Below are positions 15,745 through 39,457 of a stretch of 64,000 nucleotides of DNA, one piece after another (position 1 is the stretch's first letter; each line of letters begins with the position of its first letter). The stretch lies in the NCBI RefSeq assembly GCF_054482595.1, contig NZ_CM137008.1; one strand, given 5' to 3'. A model generated the notes under the pieces. The model ran no database searches. It worked only from the letters and a program-made list of their open reading frames with translations, and was not told where the DNA came from. The translations under genes and the position numbers were made by a program.

Positions 15745-17769
<2,025 letters not shown>

Positions 17770-17770
17770 G

Positions 17771-17989
17771 ATGGAAAAAGAGCAGCTGATTGAAATAGCC
17801 AATACGATAATGCCGTTTGGCAAATACAAAGGGCGTCGCTTAATCGACCTGCCGGAGGAGTATCTGCTGTGGTTTGCCCGCAAAGATGAGTTTCCGGCAG
17901 GGAAGCTCGGTGAGCTAATGCAAATCACGCTGCTGATTAAAACCGAGGGGCTGACGCAACTGGTCCAGCCCCTGAAGCGTCCGCTTTAA
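17771..17989 (+). CDS. ypeB: Small DUF3820-family protein YpeB
   Basis: 72 aa from ATG at 17771, 1 nt after ligA stop: MEKEQLIEIANTIMPFGKYKGRRLIDLPEEYLLWFARKDEFP... Confidence 0.8.
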   Translation: MEKEQLIEIANTIMPFGKYKGRRLIDLPEEYLLWFARKDEFPAGKLGELMQITLLIKTEGLTQLVQPLKRPL

Positions 17990-31159: not shown

Positions 31160-32125
31160 ATGACAAAGTATGCATTAGTCGGTGATGTGGGCGGCACCAA
31201 CGCACGTCTTGCTCTGTGTGATATTGCCAGTGGTGAAATCTCGCAGGCTAAGACCTATTCAGGGCTTGATTACCCCAGCCTCGAAGCGGTCATTCGCGTT
31301 TATCTTGAAGAACATAAGGTCGAGGTGAAAGACGGCTGTATTGCCATCGCTTGCCCAATTACCGGTGACTGGGTGGCAATGACCAACCATACCTGGGCGT
31401 TCTCAATTGCCGAAATGAAAAAGAATCTCGGTTTTAGCCATCTGGAAATTATTAACGATTTTACCGCTGTATCGATGGCGATCCCGATGCTGAAAAAAGA
31501 GCATCTGATTCAGTTTGGTGGCGCAGAGCCGATAGAAGGTAAGCCTATTGCGGTTTACGGTGCCGGAACGGGGCTTGGGGTTGCGCATCTGGTCCATGTC
31601 GATAAGCGTTGGGTAAGCTTGCCGGGCGAAGGCGGTCACGTTGATTTTGCGCCGAATAGTGAAGAAGAGGCCATTATCCTCGAAATATTGCGTGCGGAAA
31701 TTGGTCATGTTTCGGCGGAACGCGTGCTTTCTGGCCCAGGGCTGGTGAATTTGTATCGCGCAATTGTGAAAGCTGACAACCGCCTGCCAGAAAATCTCAA
31801 GCCAAAAGATATTACCGAACGCGCGCTGGCTGACAGCTGCACCGATTGCCGCCGTGCGTTGTCGCTGTTTTGCGTCATTATGGGCCGTTTTGGCGGCAAT
31901 CTGGCGCTCAATCTCGGGACATTTGGGGGCGTGTTTATTGCGGGCGGTATCGTGCCGCGCTTCCTTGAGTTCTTCAAAGCCTCTGGTTTCCGTGCCGCAT
32001 TTGAAGATAAAGGGCGCTTTAAAGAATATGTCCATGATATTCCGGTGTATCTCATCGTCCATGACAATCCGGGGCTTCTCGGTTCCGGTGCACATTTACG
32101 CCAGACCTTAGGTCACATTCTGTAA
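31160..32125 (+). CDS. glk: Glucokinase
   Basis: 321 aa; [22 protein letters not shown]-binding N-terminus; matches Glk. Confidence 0.97.
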
Positions 32126-32137
32126 ATCCTTCCTGTT

Positions 32138-32170
32138 ATATCGGGAGGTAACTCTCCCGATAATCTTTTA
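32138..32170 (+). terminator. Intrinsic terminator after glk
   Basis: tatcgggag-gtaact-ctcccgata followed by a T-rich tract. Confidence 0.6.
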
Positions 32171-32344
32171 AATCATACAGTTAATTCAATTTTTCTTTGT
32201 GTCCCCCTCACAAGGCCGACCTGCGTCACACTTCCGTACAGCGGGATTAATTCTCCAGTAAATGCATTATTTGTCTGGTAACGGCGATTTGTTTTGCACG
32301 TTCATAATTTCACTCGTCAACTATCACTGAACGAGGAATTAACG

Positions 32345-32671
32345 ATGAGTAAGAAACTAATTGCCTTATGTGCCTGCCCAATGGGCCTGGCTCACACCTT
32401 TATGGCCGCTCAGGCGCTGGAAGAAGCAGCGGTAGAAGCCGGTTATGAAGTGAAAATTGAAACCCAGGGCGCGGACGGTATCCAGAATCGCCTGACGGCG
32501 CAGGATATCGCCGAAGCGACCATCATCATCCACTCCGTGGCAGTTACCCCGGAAGATAACGAACGTTTCGAATCACGCGACGTTTATGAAATCACTTTGC
32601 AGGACGCAATTAAAAACGCTGCGGGCATCATCAAAGAAATCGAAGAGATGATTGCCTCTGAACAACAGTAA
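32345..32671 (+). CDS. fryB: PTS fructose-like EIIB component
   Basis: 108 aa from ATG at 32345 (MSKKLIALCACPMGLAHTFMAA...), EIIB-Fru-type cysteine. Confidence 0.88.
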   Translation: MSKKLIALCACPMGLAHTFMAAQALEEAAVEAGYEVKIETQGADGIQNRLTAQDIAEATIIIHSVAVTPEDNERFESRDVYEITLQDAIKNAAGIIKEIEEMIASEQQ

Positions 32672-32692
32672 TATTCGACAGGGATAATTGTT

Positions 32693-33940
32693 ATGGCCAT
32701 TAAAAAACGCAGTGCAACCGTTGTGCCTGGCGCATCCGGTGCGGCAGCGGCAGTTAAGAATCCGCAGGCCTCTAAAAGCAGCTTCTGGGGTGAACTCCCG
32801 CAGCATGTGATGTCAGGGATTTCACGCATGGTGCCGACCTTAATTATGGGCGGTGTGATCCTCGCTTTCAGCCAGCTGATTGCTTATAGCTGGCTTAAAA
32901 TTCCTGCTGAGATCGGCATCATGGATGCTCTTAATAGCGGGAAATTCTCCGGTTTCGACCTCTCCTTACTGAAATTTGCCTGGTTGTCGCAGTCCTTCGG
33001 CGGCGTGTTGTTTGGTTTTGCCATTCCGATGTTTGCTGCTTTTGTGGCGAACTCTATCGGTGGCAAACTGGCGTTTCCGGCTGGTTTTATCGGCGGCTTG
33101 ATGTCTACCCAGCCGACGCAACTGCTGAACTTCGATCCCAGCACTATGCAATGGGCGACCTCTTCGCCGGTGCCGTCCACCTTTATTGGTGCGCTGATTA
33201 TTTCTATCGTTGCCGGTTACCTTGTGAAATGGATGAACCAGAAAATCCAGTTACCGGATTTCCTGTTAGCGTTCAAAACCACATTTTTGCTACCGATTCT
33301 TTCCGCTATTTTTGTCATGCTGGCGATGTACTACGTCATCACACCATTTGGTGGCTGGATCAACGGCGGTATCCGTACCGTGCTGACTGCCGCAGGTGAG
33401 AAGGGCGCGCTGATGTACGCAATGGGGATCGCCGCGGCGACAGCAATCGACCTTGGTGGCCCGATCAACAAAGCCGCAGGTTTTGTTGCCTTCAGCTTTA
33501 CCACTGACCACGTATTACCGGTCACCGCACGTTCTATCGCTATCGTTATTCCGCCGATTGGTCTGGGTCTGGCGACCATTATTGACCGTCGTTTAACCGG
33601 CAAACGCCTGTTCAACGCACAACTTTATCCGCAGGGTAAGACCGCGATGTTCCTTGCCTTTATGGGGATTAGTGAGGGTGCAATTCCGTTTGCACTGGAA
33701 AGCCCCATCACCGCCATTCCGTCGTATATGGTTGGCGCGATTGTCGGCTCAACCGCCGCTGTCTGGCTGGGCGCAGTGCAATGGTTCCCGGAATCCGCTA
33801 TCTGGGCATGGCCACTGGTCACTAACCTCGGCGTCTACATGGCGGGGATCGCGCTGGGGGCAGTCATAACTGCGCTGATGGTGGTGTTCCTGCGTCTGAT
33901 GATGTTCCGTAAAGGCAAATTGTTAATCGATAGCCTGTAA
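32693..33940 (+). CDS. fryC: PTS fructose-like EIIC permease
   Basis: 415 aa polytopic permease; matches FryC. Confidence 0.9.
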
Positions 33941-33954
33941 GAAGGAAAATCCAG

Positions 33955-35040
33955 ATGACATTACTCGCTTCGCTGCGCGACTGGCTTAAGGCGCAACAAC
34001 TGGATGCAGTGCTTCTCTCATCACGGCAGAACAAACAGCCGCATCTGGGGATCTCCACCGGATCTGGTTATGTGGTGATTAGCCGAGAAAGTGCGCACAT
34101 TCTGGTGGATTCGCGATATTACGCGGATGTGGAAGCCCGCACGCAAGGCTACCAGCTGCATTTGCTTGACGCGACGCACACGCTTGCAACCATCGCCAGG
34201 CAAATCATTGCCGATGAGCAGTTGCAAACGCTCGGTTTTGAAGGCCAGCAGGTGAGTTGGGAAACCGCGCACCGCTGGCAGTCTGAACTCAATGCGAAAC
34301 TGGTTAGCGCCACGCCGGATGTGCTGCGGCAAATCAAAACGCCAGAGGAGGTGGAGAAAATCCGCCTTGCCAGTGGGATTGCCGATCGCGGTGCAGAGCA
34401 TATTCGCCGCTTTATTCAGGCGGGGATGAGCGAGCGCGAGATTGCCGCTGAACTGGAGTGGTTTATGCGCCAGCAGGGCGCAGAAAAAACCTCTTTTGAC
34501 ACCATTGTCGCCAGTGGCTGGCGTGGGGCGCTGCCGCACGGCAAAGCCAGCGACAAGATTGTTGCAGCGGGCGAGTTTGTCACTCTCGATTTCGGTGCGC
34601 TGTATCAGGGCTACTGCTCTGATATGACGCGCACCTTGCTGGTGAATGGCGAAGGGGTGAGCGCCGAATCTCATCCGCTGTTTAACGTCTATCAGATTGT
34701 TTTGCAGGCACAGCTCGCAGCAATCTCTGCAATTCGCCCCGGCGTGCGCTGCCAGCAGGTTGACGACGCCGCGCGTCGGGTGATTACCGAGGCAGGATTT
34801 GGCGACTATTTTGGTCACAACACCGGTCATGCTATTGGCATTGAAGTACACGAAGATCCGCGCTTTTCACCGCGGGATACCACGACGCTACAGCCAGGCA
34901 TGTTACTGACCGTGGAGCCGGGGATTTATTTGCCAGGGCAAGGGGGCGTGCGCATCGAGGATGTTGTGCTGGTCACCCCGCAAGGCGCAGAAGTGCTCTA
35001 CGCCATGCCGAAAACAGTGTTGCTCACGGGAGAGGCATAA
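33955..35040 (+). CDS. ypdF: Xaa-Pro aminopeptidase (M24 family)
   Basis: 361 aa; M24 metal-binding His/Glu motifs ([13 protein letters not shown]); matches YpdF. Confidence 0.9.
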
Positions 35041-36077
35041 TGGATTTATCGCTATTAAAAGCGTTGAGCGAGGCAGATGCGATCGCCTCCTCGGAACAGG
35101 AAGTGCGGCAGATCCTGCTGGAAGAAGCGGATCGCCTGCAAAAAGAAGTGCGATTTGATGGTCTGGGATCGGTGCTGATCCGCCTCAATGAATCGACAGG
35201 TCCGAAAGTGATGATCTGTGCGCATATGGACGAAGTTGGATTTATGGTGCGCAGTATCTCCCGCGAAGGGGCGATTGATGTGCTGCCGGTTGGCAATGTA
35301 CGCATGGCTGCCCGCCAGCTGCAGCCGGTGCGCATCACCACCCGTGAAGAGTGCAAAATTCCAGGCCTGCTTGACGGCGACCGGCAGGGGAATGATGTCA
35401 GCGCCATGCGCGTGGATATTGGCGCGCGCTCGTATGACGAAGTGATGCAGGCGGGAATTCGTCCAGGCGATCGCGTCACGTTCGATACCACTTTTCAGGT
35501 TCTCCCTCACCAGCGGGTGATGGGGAAAGCCTTTGATGATCGCCTCGGTTGCTATCTGCTGGTGACGTTACTACGTGAGCTGCACGACGCCGAACTGCCT
35601 GCGGAAGTGTGGCTGGTGGCAAGTTCCAGCGAAGAGGTGGGATTACGCGGCGGGCAAACTGCCACCCGCGCGGTGTCGCCGGACGTCGCCATTGTGCTTG
35701 ATACCGCCTGCTGGGCGAAAAACTTTGATTATGGCGCGGCTAACCATCGCCAGATTGGTAACGGGCCGATGCTGGTGTTAAGCGACAAGTCGCTGATTGC
35801 GCCGCCAAAACTTACCGCCTGGGTCGAAACCGTGGCGGCAGAAATTGGCGTGCCGTTGCAGGCAGATATGTTCAGCAACGGCGGCACGGACGGCGGGGCG
35901 GTGCACTTAACCGGCACCGGCGTGCCCACAGTGGTGATGGGGCCAGCAACCCGCCATGGACATTGCGCCGCATCGATTGCCGATTGCCGCGACATTTTGC
36001 AGATGCAGCAACTTTTATCTGCCCTTATTCAACGTCTTACGCGTGAGACGGTTGTTCAACTGACGGATTTCAGATGA
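35040..36077 (+). CDS. ypdE: M42-family aminopeptidase
   Basis: 345 aa; start overlaps ypdF stop; matches YpdE. Confidence 0.9.
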
Positions 36078-36101
36078 TCTCCTGATTAACCCGGAGCGGT
36101 T

Positions 36102-38597
36102 ATGCTAACGATTCAATTTCTCTGTCCTTTGCCTAACGGTCTTCATGCCCGTCCGGCGTGGGAACTTAAAGAACAGTGCAGCCAGTGGCAAAGCGAAATC
36201 ACCTTCATCAACCATCGCCAGAACGCAAAGGCCGATGCCAAAAGCTCGCTGGCGCTGATTGGCACCGGCACCTTATTTAATGACAGTTGCAGCCTGAACA
36301 TTAGCGGCAGCGATGAAGAGCAGGCGCGGCGCGTGCTGGAAGAGTACATCCAGGTGTGCTTTATTGACAGCGACAGCGTTCAGCCAACGCAGGCAGAACT
36401 GACGGCGCATCCGCTGCCGCGTTCATTAAGCCGCCTTAACCCGGATTTACTGTACGGCAATGTGCTGGCAAGCGGCGTCGGCGTGGGTACGCTGACCCTG
36501 TTACAAAGCGACAGCCTCGACAGTTATCGGGCAATCCCCGCCAGTGCGCAAGACTCCACCCGGCTGGAGCACAGCCTGGCAACGCTTGCCGAGCAACTGA
36601 ACCAGCAATTGCGTGAGCGTGACGGCGAAAGCAAAACTATCCTCAGCGCCCATTTGTCGCTGATTCAGGATGATGAGTTCGCGGGCAATATCCGTCGCCT
36701 GATGACAGAACAGCATCAGGGGCTGGGGGCGGCGATCATCAGCAATATGGAGCAGGTTTGCGCCAAACTTTCTGCTTCTGCCAGCGATTATCTGCGCGAA
36801 CGTGTTAGCGACATTCGCGATATTAGCGAACAGTTGCTGCATATTACCTGGCCGGAACTGAAGCCGCGCAACAATCTGGTGCTGGAAAAACCGACTATTC
36901 TGGTGGCCGAGGATTTAGCCCCAAGCCAGTTTTTAAGCCTGGATTTAAAAAATCTTGCGGGCATGATTCTGGAGAAAACCGGGCGCACCTCGCATACCCT
37001 GATTCTGGCCCGCGCCTCGGCGATCCCGGTACTGAGCGGCCTGCCGCTGGATGCGATTGCCCGTTATGCCGGGCAACCTGCAGTGCTTGACGCCCAGTGC
37101 GGCGTGCTGGCGATTAACCCGAATGACGCGGTGAGCGGTTATTATCAGGTCGCGCAGACGCTGGCGGATAAACGCCAAAAACAACAGGCGCAGGCTGCCG
37201 CGCAGCTGGCTTATTCCCGTGATAACAAGCGTATTGATATCGCGGCGAATATTGGCACCGCTCTGGAAGCGCCTGGCGCGTTTGCCAACGGCGCGGAAGG
37301 CGTCGGGCTGTTCCGTACCGAAATGCTCTATATGGATCGCGACAGCGCGCCGGACGAGCAGGAGCAATTTGAAGCCTACCAGCAGGTGCTACTGGCAGCG
37401 GGCGACAAGCCGATTATCTTCCGCACAATGGACATCGGAGGCGATAAAAGCATTCCTTATCTGAATATTCCCCAGGAAGAGAACCCGTTCCTCGGCTATC
37501 GCGCGGTACGTATTTACCCGGAATTTGCTGGCCTGTTCCGCACTCAACTGCGGGCCATTTTGCGCGCAGCCAGTTTCGGCAACGCCCAGTTGATGATCCC
37601 AATGGTCCACAGTCTCGATCAGATCTTATGGGTGAAGGGCGAGATCCAGAAGGCGATCGTTGAGCTTAAGCGCGATGGTTTGCGTCACGCAGAAACGATC
37701 CCTCTGGGGATCATGGTGGAAGTACCGTCGGTGTGCTACATCATCGATCACTTCTGCGATGAGGTCGATTTCTTCAGTATCGGCTCCAACGATATGACCC
37801 AGTATCTGTATGCGGTCGATCGTAATAACCCGCGCGTATCGCCGCTATATAACCCGATTACGCCATCGTTCCTGCGCATGTTGCAGCAAATAGTTACCAC
37901 TGCGCATCAGCGGGGCAAATGGGTAGGCATTTGCGGTGAACTGGGCGGTGAAAGCCGTTATCTGTCGCTACTGCTTGGGCTGGGCCTGGATGAGCTGAGT
38001 ATGAGTAGCCCGCGCATTCCGGCGGTGAAAAGCCAGCTTCGTCAACTGGATAGCGAGGCGTGTCGGGAACTGGCACGTCAGGCGTGTGAATGTCGCAGCG
38101 CGCAGGAAATTGAAGCGTTACTCACCGCCTTTACGCCGGAAGAAGACGTTCGCCCACTGCTGGCGCTGGAGAATATCTTCGTTGATCAGGCCTTTAGCAA
38201 TAAAGAGCAGGCGATCCAGTTCCTGTGCGGTAACCTCGGCGTTAACGGGCGCACTGAACATCCGTTCGAGCTGGAAGAGGATGTCTGGCAGCGGGAAGAG
38301 ATTGTCACCACTGGCGTTGGTTTTGGCGTGGCGATCCCGCACACCAAATCTCAGTGGATCCGTCATTCCAGTATCAGCATTGCCCGGCTGGCGAAACCGG
38401 TTGACTGGCAGTCAGAAATGGGCGAAGTCGAACTGGTGATCATGCTGACGCTGGGTGCTAACGAAGGGATGAATCATGTGAAAGTCTTCTCGCAGCTGGC
38501 GCGTAAACTGGTGAATAAAAACTTCCGCCAGTCGTTGTTTGCCGCGCAAGATGCACAAAGTATCCTGACGCTGCTGGAAACAGAATTAACCTTCTGA
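36102..38597 (+). CDS. fryA: PTS multiphosphoryl transfer protein (HPr-like, Enzyme I-like and EIIA-Fru-like domains)
   Basis: 831 aa; N-terminal HPr-like (LPNGLHARPA), central EI-like (GGRTSHTLILARA; PEP-utilising), C-terminal EIIA; matches FryA. Confidence 0.9.
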   Translation: MLTIQFLCPLPNGLHARPAWELKEQCSQWQSEITFINHRQNAKADAKSSLALIGTGTLFNDSCSLNISGSDEEQARRVLEEYIQVCFIDSDSVQPTQAELTAHPLPRSLSRLNPDLLYGNVLASGVGVGTLTLLQSDSLDSYRAIPASAQDSTRLEHSLATLAEQLNQQLRERDGESKTILSAHLSLIQDDEFAGNIRRLMTEQHQGLGAAIISNMEQVCAKLSASASDYLRERVSDIRDISEQLLHITWPELKPRNNLVLEKPTILVAEDLAPSQFLSLDLKNLAGMILEKTGRTSHTLILARASAIPVLSGLPLDAIARYAGQPAVLDAQCGVLAINPNDAVSGYYQVAQTLADKRQKQQAQAAAQLAYSRDNKRIDIAANIGTALEAPGAFANGAEGVGLFRTEMLYMDRDSAPDEQEQFEAYQQVLLAAGDKPIIFRTMDIGGDKSIPYLNIPQEENPFLGYRAVRIYPEFAGLFRTQLRAILRAASFGNAQLMIPMVHSLDQILWVKGEIQKAIVELKRDGLRHAETIPLGIMVEVPSVCYIIDHFCDEVDFFSIGSNDMTQYLYAVDRNNPRVSPLYNPITPSFLRMLQQIVTTAHQRGKWVGICGELGGESRYLSLLLGLGLDELSMSSPRIPAVKSQLRQLDSEACRELARQACECRSAQEIEALLTAFTPEEDVRPLLALENIFVDQAFSNKEQAIQFLCGNLGVNGRTEHPFELEEDVWQREEIVTTGVGFGVAIPHTKSQWIRHSSISIARLAKPVDWQSEMGEVELVIMLTLGANEGMNHVKVFSQLARKLVNKNFRQSLFAAQDAQSILTLLETELTF

Positions 38598-38599
38598 CG

Positions 38600-39457
38600 T
38601 TAGCCCTGAAAACGGGCGCTGTACTCTCCCGGCGTCAGACCAAACTGACGCCGGAAAACGCGACAAAAATAGTCGCTATCCGGAAAACCGCAACGCTGTG
38701 CCACTTCATGAATTGACAGATGATATTTCTGCAAAATCATCCTCGCCTTCGCCATTCGCACCCAACGCACATATTCGATAAAACGCATTGTTCCATGCTG
38801 AGCAAACAGTTTTGACAGATGATTGGGCGTGATATTAAAAAACTGTGCCACGCTCTCGCGGGTGAGCTGCTGGGCATAATTATCCTGAACCCAGTTACAA
38901 ATGCTGTGATAGAGAAAATCGCCGCGCGGCTGCGAATTGCCCGGTGGCATATTCACCACGTTGCGGCAAAGATGCAGCAAACTTAACACCAGTGGCTGAA
39001 TGATATTCTGCTCCAGCGGCGAACGGCTAAGATGGGTGAGGGCGGTAAGTATCGCTTCACCTTCACCGCGTTGCAGGCTGGGAAGCTGGATCTGGCGAGC
39101 AGGATGCAACAACGACGTGGTGCGGCTATCGTAAAACGATAACCCAAGCCAGGTCGGTGCGAACACCAGACTTAACAGCATCACCGGTTTGTTGTTGATC
39201 GGTAAATTAGCCGCGCGCGCCGGAATAAACAGCATTTCTCCTTCCACCAAACGTTGCTGCTTTGCTTCCAGCAGATTGCCGTATTCGCCGCGCAGCACGA
39301 TATCCAGACGGGGAAAATCAATACATAAACTGCCCACCGGCAACGAGGCAGGCTGGCTGGCAAACCAGACGCGCCCCAGTAGTTGCGGGTTAAGCACCAG
39401 GCCGCTGAACAGATCGGCGAAAAATTGTTGATCGGCGGGCAAGCCTGGTGCTTTCAT
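38600..39457 (-). CDS. ypdC: AraC-family transcriptional regulator
   Basis: 285 aa; C-terminal AraC HTH; matches YpdC. Confidence 0.88.
   Translation of the reverse strand: MKAPGLPADQQFFADLFSGLVLNPQLLGRVWFASQPASLPVGSLCIDFPRLDIVLRGEYGNLLEAKQQRLVEGEMLFIPARAANLPINNKPVMLLSLVFAPTWLGLSFYDSRTTSLLHPARQIQLPSLQRGEGEAILTALTHLSRSPLEQNIIQPLVLSLLHLCRNVVNMPPGNSQPRGDFLYHSICNWVQDNYAQQLTRESVAQFFNITPNHLSKLFAQHGTMRFIEYVRWVRMAKARMILQKYHLSIHEVAQRCGFPDSDYFCRVFRRQFGLTPGEYSARFQG

Follow-up and report, generated by a model that had tools for sequence, protein, structure and literature searches.

What does the transporter of the fry operon carry, and why should two aminopeptidases be encoded inside a phosphotransferase system (PTS) operon? 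We addressed this question in a 64,000-nucleotide stretch of contig NZ_CM137008.1 (assembly GCF_054482595.1; hereafter the window), in which fryB, fryC, ypdF, ypdE and fryA occupy positions 32345–38597 of the plus strand. The function of fry has stayed unassigned among the "cryptic" PTS paralogues of Escherichia coli since these were first described in the 1990s. Our full-text literature searches found no substrate assigned to FryABC and only incidental mentions of a PTS–peptidase–lyase cluster, and a 2017 study describes the substrate of FryABC as unknown (PMC5364489); the initial annotation, which had called the transported substrate unresolved and the operon conserved but functionally open rather than novel, is supported on both points. 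What is new here is the genomic context of the fry operon, not the operon itself. Comparison across phyla suggests that fry represents, in enterobacteria, an old catabolic module that has spread horizontally, and it leads to a specific, cheaply testable hypothesis, in which the substrate is a mannosyl amino acid or glycopeptide, YpdC activates the operon and a PatB-type lyase supplies the missing step elsewhere.

The fry operon encodes a PTS with its own phosphorelay and two aminopeptidases

Five co-directional, tightly packed and intact open reading frames (ORFs) fill 32345–38597 (+) in the ORF list for 29–42 kb of the window. The first, fryB (32345–32671), encodes a fructose-family EIIB of 108 residues with the active-site motif CPMGLAHT (Cys11), matching PF02302 (PTS_IIB) with 71 bits and TIGR00829 with 92.2 bits (cut-off 76.85); its start in the mechanical ORF list was a TTG at 32294. 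The product of fryC (32693–33940) is a fructose-family EIIC, a membrane permease of 415 residues (PF02378, PTS_EIIC, 52.2 bits, cut-off 30.7). Next come the two peptidase genes. YpdF (33955–35040, 361 residues) is an M24B metallo-aminopeptidase of the Xaa-Pro type, which matched PF00557 (Peptidase_M24, 244.6 bits) and PF01321 (Creatinase_N, 70.4 bits), scored 809.9 bits on the YpdF equivalog NF007310 (cut-off 393) and matched the Protein Data Bank (PDB) entry 5CNX, "Aminopeptidase YpdF", with an E value of 9e-233. YpdE (35040–36077, 345 residues) is an M42 (TET-type) aminopeptidase (PF05343, Peptidase_M42, 286.9 bits; YpdE equivalog NF007421, 681.4 bits, cut-off 412) and matched PDB 1YLO, a near-identical Shigella homologue, with an E value of 2e-225. 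Finally, fryA (36102–38597) encodes a fused HPr–EI–EIIA(Fru) protein of 831 residues, the private phosphorelay of the Fry PTS, in which PF00381 (PTS-HPr), the three EI domains PF05524, PF00391 and PF02896, and PF00359 (EIIA_2) all exceeded their cut-offs, as did TIGR01417 (499 bits, cut-off 341.7) and TIGR00848 (142 bits, cut-off 103.5). Membership was found for all the families concerned, namely EIIB(Fru), EIIC, EI/HPr/EIIA multiphosphoryl transfer protein, M24B and M42, and ORF coordinates, Pfam and NCBIfam agree on the arrangement originally read from the letters, an EIIB–EIIC pair and an HPr/EI/EIIA fusion bracketing an M24 and an M42 peptidase.

The stop codon of ypdF and the ATG of ypdE share one base (gcaTAATGgat), and the remaining junctions have gaps of 21, 14 and 24 nt with a Shine-Dalgarno-like motif at each. 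The co-translation that had been read from this overlap thus stands for one gene pair and does not extend to the whole operon. The fry genes are listed as one transcription unit, and ypdF and fryA were mildly induced in a Cpx experiment (PMC2731931). Over 7 kb, the sequence matches annotated E. coli chromosomes bearing the same gene names at 100% identity. The five genes are a real annotated operon and not a chance pattern, and its existence was already known.

The gene order of fry recurs in Clostridia and Erysipelotrichia

We scanned one genome per GTDB species with an alignment of the FryC clade and retained the best 80 loci (50–100% identity to FryC), which were sorted by tblastn with seed proteins, by gene maps and by clustering of all predicted locus proteins. 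Thirty-six of the 80 were enterobacterial and had the order fryB-fryC-ypdF-ypdE-fryA (Escherichia, Citrobacter, Salmonella diarizonae and arizonae, Kluyvera, Enterobacter, Hafnia, Serratia and others). Fifteen loci from Clostridia and Erysipelotrichia (Hungatella, Enterocloster, Ruminococcaceae, Lachnospiraceae, Breznakia, Caproiciproducens) read PRD regulator-EIIA-EIIB-EIIC-M24-M42, with a PatB gene next in 14 of them and the contig end in the fifteenth. The order M20-PRD regulator-EIIA-EIIB-EIIC-M24-PatB was found in nine (C. difficile, Geosporobacter, Caloramator, Pelosinus, Lucifera and others), the M20 gene being present in eight of the nine, and three Rahnella-type loci read LacI-M20-EIIB-EIIC-M24. 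The remaining 17 (Hungatella, Leptotrichia, Sebaldella, S. suis, Tissierellia, BVAB1 and others) read EIIA-EIIB-EIIC-GH38, with a glycoside hydrolase family 38 (GH38) gene behind the permease. The check proposed in the initial annotation, co-occurrence of fryBC with ypdEF across genomes, showed that the EIIB-EIIC-M24-M42 order recurs in Clostridia and Erysipelotrichia. The coupling of peptidases to a PTS that it had pointed out is real, with the refinement that it is not specific to E. coli and appears to belong to an old module common to Firmicutes, where it comes with a PatB-type lyase.

The Firmicute peptidases scored best on the YpdF and YpdE equivalog models (M24, 352 and 337 bits; M42, 393 bits), which argues that they are co-orthologous with the E. 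coli enzymes and not independent recruits. The gene labelled "aminotransferase" encodes a PatB/MalY-family, pyridoxal phosphate (PLP)-dependent C-S lyase (345, 340 and 307 bits on TIGR04350, cut-off 340), whose PLP lysine is invariant; outside the enterobacterial fry set, PatB occurred in 24 loci, 23 from Firmicutes and one metagenomic (L004). The M20 partner is a PepV/Sapep-type dipeptidase, the Firmicute regulators are HTH-Mga-PRD-EIIA proteins distantly related to FrvR, and the GH38 partners have MngB as their best-scoring model. Five peptidase-type operons adjoin a gene for class I mannose-6-phosphate isomerase (PMI; 267 bits on TIGR00218, the manA model), which follows PatB in three (L056, L061, L072) and is divergent from M20 in two (L081, L085). 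Other genes flanking the Firmicute operons (mutSL, histidine kinase, SNF2 helicase, methyl-accepting chemotaxis protein, large surface proteins) are unrelated housekeeping genes and not conserved; these operons are therefore self-contained.

The module runs from EIIB-EIIC-M24 through M42 or a PepV-type M20 to a PatB-type lyase, which mannose-6-phosphate isomerase sometimes follows. Firmicute operons of the type PRD regulator-EIIA-EIIB-EIIC-M24-(M42)-PatB share the core order of fry (EIIC 50–67% and peptidases 41–48% identical to the E. coli proteins), but they differ from it in that EIIA is a separate protein, the activator is of the PRD type and a PatB-type lyase, in some cases with PMI, is included, and they are without FryA and YpdC. 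The E. coli operon shows the EIIB-EIIC-M24-M42 order and the cross-phylum best matches of the module, and it contains no PatB-family lyase gene, fryA being met directly by ypdC after 2 bp. In an Enterobacterales metagenome-assembled genome (L046) the order is ypdC-fryB-fryC-ypdF-ypdE-fryA-patB, its PatB scoring 357 bits on TIGR04350, so that the lyase was probably lost in the lineage toward E. coli. The aminotransferase gene alaC, just beyond ypdABC, was considered as a displaced operon lyase and rejected, as its product is about 22% identical to the cluster PatB and non-orthologous.

From gene order and annotation, we infer that the homologue in C. difficile 630 (L081) is CD2484–CD2491. Its PTS (CD2486-88) and Xaa-Pro peptidase (CD2485) are co-regulated by glucose/CcpA, and pmi (CD2491) appears in a figure legend on glucose/CcpA-regulated carbon metabolism (PMC3510511). 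Proteins of this cluster have been detected, and the cluster was reported to be induced during infection (bioRxiv 10.1101/598045).

Peptidases and alpha-mannosidases alternate behind closely related permeases

A profile-free, exhaustive search of 1.8 billion cluster representatives returned only 54 matches to FryC at E ≤ 1e-30. The nearest non-orthologue (P0123) is a fused EIIABC protein, 54% identical to FryC, from metagenomic locus L004, where the gene order is RidA, alanine-dehydrogenase homologue, RpiR, EIIABC, M24, M20 and "aminotransferase"; RidA and the alanine-dehydrogenase homologue would fit 2-aminoacrylate/pyruvate handling. All of the next eight relatives sampled (35–44% identity) adjoin a GH38 alpha-mannosidase gene. 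These distant relatives often also lie beside genes for a GH13 enzyme and a glycerate kinase, a combination that marks mannosylglycerate-type catabolism. One of these eight loci, on a low-GC (31%) contig from an organism using genetic code 4, has the order GH38-EIIABC-M42 (L096, 5306–11749), in which an alpha-mannosidase and an M42 protein 34% identical to FrvX flank a single PTS gene.

Directly behind EIIC, the non-fry loci of the genome scan carried either the peptidase block or GH38, never both and never neither (44/44); no GH38 gene lies within 29–42 kb of the window. A neighbour-joining tree (409 EIIC columns, 100 bootstrap replicates) separated the FryC-like clade, with 100% bootstrap support, from the GH38/GH13/glycerate-kinase group and from E. 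coli FrvB, FrwC, MngA and FruA. The peptidase-linked EIICs were monophyletic in 0 of 100 replicates: the Hungatella GH38 type, the Clostridial M24/M42 type and the Enterobacteriaceae grouped together in 87% of replicates, and in a second sub-clade the M20/M24/PatB and GH38 types were interleaved (mixed clade, 73% support). At strict thresholds, no specificity-determining positions distinguished peptidase- from GH38-linked EIICs, and relaxed thresholds gave conservative A/S and I/V trends only. The aglycone-removing block has been swapped repeatedly behind a near-unchanged EIIB/EIIC pair, which argues that the same sugar is recognised, an alpha-mannoside. Gene context likewise argues for a mannoside over fructose as the FryC substrate.

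Relation to known PTS operons

Like the proposed Fry system, MngA/MngB (the 2-O-alpha-mannosyl-D-glycerate PTS and its GH38 hydrolase) combines a fructose-family PTS with a mannoside that bears a small-acid aglycone, and a cytoplasmic enzyme encoded beside the permease strips the aglycone from the phosphorylated sugar. MngB-like GH38 genes adjoin FryC-clade EIICs in the 17 loci described above, as well as all eight distant relatives sampled. Fry differs in its separate proteins, its private EI/HPr and its peptidase partners in place of a glycosidase; FryC reached 102.5 bits on the MngA equivalog NF007293 against a cut-off of 763, and E. coli MngA falls outside the FryC-like clade. Thus, the fry operon is not an MngAB member, yet, judged by this analogy, it most plausibly works like MngAB with a different aglycone-removing block.

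The operons frvABXR and sgcXBCQAER resemble fry as cryptic PTS operons with an embedded M42 gene. YpdE is 37% identical to FrvX and 33% to SgcX, the metal ligands are kept in all three proteins, and the frv regulator, FrvR, is of the PRD type and akin to the regulators of Firmicute Fry-like operons. In contrast to fry, both operons are without M24 and without their own EI/HPr, and the sgc PTS is of the galactitol family. The sgc operon was recently reported to be induced under nitrogen-containing, slow-growth conditions (PMC13343008). Each of the three M42 paralogues of E. coli K-12 (ypdE, frvX, sgcX) lies inside a cryptic PTS operon (NC_000913.3 4084000–4094000, L002; 4522000–4533000, L003), which makes PTS–M42 coupling a recurring theme.

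Sugar transporters coupled to enzymes that act on an amino-acid part are found in frl, fra and gfr (glycated amino acids) and in malX-malY, the last of which pairs a PTS permease with a PatB/MalY-type lyase. These systems use SIS-type deglycases/kinases or a glucose-family PTS and, to our knowledge, none of them includes an M24 or M42 enzyme. As for FryA, the PtsA protein of the frw cluster (L094, 721–3222; NC_000913.3 ptsA) is annotated in the same way, as a putative PTS multiphosphoryl transfer protein of similar size; in K-12, ptsA adjoins frwCBD, pflDC and fsaB.

A sugar–peptide conjugate as candidate substrate

Our favoured reading of this genomic context, which we regard as an evenly balanced proposition, is that the Fry substrate is a sugar–amino acid or sugar–peptide conjugate. 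A more specific version, which we advance tentatively and hold to be doubtful, is that Fry-type systems would be the first PTS for glyco-amino acids and short glycopeptides, with the Firmicute PatB/MalY-type enzyme beta-eliminating mannose-6-phosphate from Ser/Thr. Under the general reading, FryC and FryB would take up an amino acid or short glycopeptide bearing an alpha-mannosyl (or other hexosyl) group and phosphorylate its sugar; with FryA supplying HPr, EI and EIIA, FryB the EIIB and FryC the permease, the operon encodes a self-sufficient PTS accompanied by two cytoplasmic metallo-aminopeptidases. A good candidate substrate would be the O-mannosyl-Ser/Thr(-Pro) remnant, resistant to proteases, of O-mannosylated glycoproteins from fungi, bacteria or the host. 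O-glycosylated stretches are rich in Ser/Thr-Pro, and YpdF/M24 would cut the Xaa-Pro bond, freeing the C-terminal proline partner, while YpdE/M42 or the M20 dipeptidase would trim N-terminal residues. In Firmicutes, beta-elimination of mannose-6-phosphate by the PatB-type enzyme would leave 2-aminoacrylate and then pyruvate, or 2-oxobutyrate, together with ammonia, and PMI would feed the mannose-6-phosphate into glycolysis. In E. coli the last step would occur in trans or be missing, MalY, MetC or MngB in trans being guesses. By analogy with MngA/MngB, a GH38 operon would combine a PTS that delivers a 6-phospho-alpha-mannoside with a GH38 enzyme that hydrolyses it, the peptidases and lyase holding the same slot in their own operons.

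Several points weigh against this scheme. We know of no experiment that ties a glyco-amino acid or glycopeptide to Fry or a related PTS, nor of any PTS with a peptide-bearing substrate. Zheng and co-workers reportedly found in 2005 that both E. coli peptidases are active on unmodified peptides in vitro, so that YpdF and YpdE need no glycosylated substrate. The E. coli operon has no lyase, glycosidase or isomerase, which leaves the proposed pathway incomplete in that species. The lyase activity characterised for PatB/MalY enzymes is on C-S and not C-O bonds, and beta-elimination of a glycosyl group from Ser/Thr is a chemically plausible but hypothetical step. The argument for mannose is one of gene neighbourhood (PMI in 5 of the 24 PatB-type loci, GH38 in sister operons). 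As for FryC itself, its score on TIGR01427 (157.4 bits) fell 0.15 bits under the cut-off of 157.55, and it had no match among PDB sequences. Its AlphaFold2 model (pLDDT 81) matched the glucose-specific EIIC of V. cholerae, known from cryo-EM, together with two integrative models of PtsG (TM 0.5–0.56, probability 1.0, 12–16% identity), with no further structural match at E ≤ 0.001. These matches give FryC the EIIC fold of the Glc-Fru-Lac superfamily. Because only glucose-family EIICs match, at such low identity, and no fructose-family EIIC structure has been solved, the substrate cannot be read from the FryC pocket, and the comparison with characterised EIICs that the initial annotation had suggested did not yield one.

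If the proposal of a glyco-amino acid or glycopeptide substrate is true, it would mean a new class of PTS substrate and a new, non-hydrolytic enzymatic route for the removal of O-linked sugars, in a nutrient niche common to gut Enterobacteriaceae, C. difficile and commensal Clostridia. It would also explain the recurrent M42 "peptidases" of fry, frv and sgc, and perhaps the malX-malY puzzle. A ypdE mutant of the uropathogenic E. coli strain UTI89 was outcompeted in the mouse bladder (competitive index 0.30; PMC8767336), which, together with the in vivo induction of the C. difficile homologue, suggests that this niche matters in the host.

The operon is intact and maintained under purifying selection

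The fry operon was present in 5424 of 5426 complete E. coli genomes. The phospho-site motifs of FryA are intact (GLHARPA, His15; GRTSHT, His298; GVAIPH, His747), the metal ligands of YpdF (D212, D223, H292, E321, E335) are invariant among 55 operon-linked homologues, and those of YpdE (H62, D64, D166, E198, E199, D221, H308) are invariant among its operon-linked homologues. Against E. whittamii, Citrobacter and Salmonella, the ratio of nonsynonymous to synonymous substitution rates (dN/dS) was 0.01–0.08 for fryB, fryC, ypdE and fryA (0.01–0.03 for fryB) and 0.12–0.16 for ypdF; the values over the five genes (0.01–0.16) indicate that the operon is maintained under purifying selection. The term "cryptic" thus applies to fry solely in the sense of unexpressed in the laboratory. 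The ypdF gene evolves faster than most of its operon partners, its product having 72–77% identity to the Citrobacter protein versus 94% for FryC. An in-frame fryA deletion gave better recovery and survival after prolonged LB culture (PMC5364489).

Natural in-frame fryC deletion alleles (P0072, P0030, P0050) lose conserved membrane segments, namely residues 119–154 or 220–254 in some E. coli and 122–132 in some Salmonella enterica. The segments lost in the E. coli alleles are kept in 5417 and 5406 of the 5426 complete genomes, and the alleles were rejected as a sign of decay on this ground. In Escherichia sp. MOD1-EC7003 (L015, 12348–13328), ypdE matched over only its first ~500 bp and fryA started ~80 bp earlier than elsewhere, which suggests an internal deletion of ypdE in that lineage. 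A record labelled Chryseobacterium sp. 18061 (CACSKA010000002.1, L037) holds a full Enterobacter-like fry locus including ypdC, with a FryC 74% identical, and is probably contaminated or mislabelled.

A conserved putative promoter region and YpdC as candidate activator

Alignment across 13 enterobacterial genera, from Escherichia to Serratia and Hafnia, delimited a conserved, putative promoter/operator region upstream of fryB (32226–32308, +). The sole invariant or near-invariant stretches of the intergenic region are TCACACTT at 32226–32233, the direct repeats TCCAGTAAA (32254–32262) and TCTGGTAAC (32274–32282), spaced 20 bp start to start, and a -10-like CATAAT (32303–32308) 20 nt past the second repeat; nowhere else in the window is the two-repeat pattern matched exactly. 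A sigma-70 scan of the plus strand of the glk–fryB interval found no full promoter and no recognisable -35 hexamer, and the second repeat overlaps the expected -35 position. This layout points to an activator-dependent, class II fryB promoter of the AraC type, and activator-dependent transcription would explain the silence of the operon in the laboratory.

Convergent with fryA, ypdC (38600–39457, minus strand) encodes an AraC-family regulator (HTH_18, 74.3 bits, cut-off 33.6), which we propose as the fry activator because the repeat/-10 layout is typical of an AraC-type class II site. It adjoins fryA in 29 of 31 enterobacterial loci, with ypdA in 11 and ypdB in 10 (Escherichia and Citrobacter; ypdA alone in Pseudocitrobacter), and in L046 it lies directly upstream of fryB on the same strand. 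Eleven enterobacterial loci (L026, at 16854–17771, and ten others; Enterobacter, Lelliottia, Pluralibacter, Superficieibacter and other genera) carry an alpha/beta-hydrolase gene after ypdC in place of ypdB and ypdA, whose product matched generic models only. The presence of ypdC beside this gene, without ypdB and ypdA, links it to fry and not to the two-component system; YpdC is the likely activator of fry and would lie outside the pyruvate response of YpdAB. In ChIP-exo, no peaks were obtained for YpdC under the conditions assayed (PMC8464067).

Alternative explanations for the coupling of peptidases to the PTS

The PTS might carry an ordinary sugar or polyol, the aminopeptidases being housekeeping or scavenging enzymes that are merely co-regulated or have hitch-hiked, with no sugar–peptide substrate involved. 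This would accord with the reported in vitro activity of YpdF and YpdE on unmodified peptides, with the ordinary M24 and M42 folds of 5CNX and 1YLO and with the lack of an enzyme breaking a sugar–amino acid bond in the E. coli operon; the sgcX paralogue, in the PTS operon of a different transporter family, indicates that the link could be generic. However, chance linkage would not last at dN/dS values of 0.02–0.16 across the distances from Enterobacteriaceae to Clostridia and Erysipelotrichia over which the EIIB-EIIC-M24-M42 order is kept, with cross-phylum peptidases that match YpdF/YpdE best, and the peptidase/lyase block occupies the exact slot of GH38 in sister operons, to the mutual exclusion of the two in 44 of 44 loci. 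We consider an ordinary sugar unlikely. A glycation (Amadori/Heyns) product, in the form of a glycated peptide or of an amino acid with a fructosyl or glucosyl group, would by analogy with frl, fra and gfr be imported by the fructose-like PTS, and the peptidases would trim glycated peptides. Against this, SIS-type deglycases, kinases and epimerases are absent from all 80 loci, where GH38 alpha-mannosidases and mannose-6-phosphate isomerase are the neighbours instead, and a PLP beta-lyase would have no obvious role on an N-alkylated amino group. The fructose-family PTS components, the RpiR/SIS regulator of L004 (a kind common in sugar-phosphate and Amadori loci) and the abundance of glycated peptides in the gut all speak for such a substrate, which we nevertheless find improbable.

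If the PatB enzyme is a true C-S lyase, as the characterised members of its family are, the substrate could be a sugar-bearing cysteine compound (an S-glycosyl-cysteine peptide or a cysteinyl-aminosugar thiol of bacillithiol type) from which the aminopeptidases would liberate cysteine or a Cys-conjugate, and malXY is another PTS and C-S lyase pair in E. coli. The relatives of the M20 partner are PepV/Sapep and, at a distance, the Cys-Gly-3M3SH dipeptidase, yet it scores weakly on the Cys-Gly dipeptidase model (217 bits versus a cut-off of 1025). Cleavage of the C-S bond of an S-glycoside would moreover yield a 1-thio-sugar, which is no substrate for PMI, bacillithiol-type sugars are glucosamine and would need deacetylase- or deaminase-type genes, none of which is present, and the GH38 and PMI neighbours point to O-linked mannose; this explanation seems to us decidedly improbable. 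It would be surprising, finally, if the E. coli operon were a decaying, non-functional relic of a horizontally acquired module that had lost its lyase and PRD regulator and was never usefully expressed. Its five ORFs are intact, the catalytic and phospho-site residues are kept, dN/dS is 0.01–0.16, all but two of the 5426 genomes carry it, the segments lost in deletion alleles persist in 5417 and 5406 of them, the promoter region is conserved across 13 genera and mutation of ypdE costs fitness in the mouse bladder (PMC8767336). Against these stand the lack of PatB and of a recognisable sigma-70 promoter, the absence of YpdC binding under laboratory conditions (PMC8464067), the rare in-frame fryC deletion alleles and the improved survival of a fryA deletion in long LB culture (PMC5364489).

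Boundaries of the fry transcription unit

Upstream of the operon, glk ends at 32125 and is followed by an intrinsic-terminator-like hairpin with a T-run (32139–32162, +; 10-bp stem with 5 G-C pairs, tail ATCTTTTAAA), which marks the upstream boundary of the fry transcription unit. Downstream of fryA lie the convergent ypdC, then ypdB and ypdA, the stop codons of fryA and ypdC being 2 bp apart. There is no terminator-like hairpin between these convergent stops (38595–38602), and transcripts from the ypdABC and fry promoters would collide at this point.

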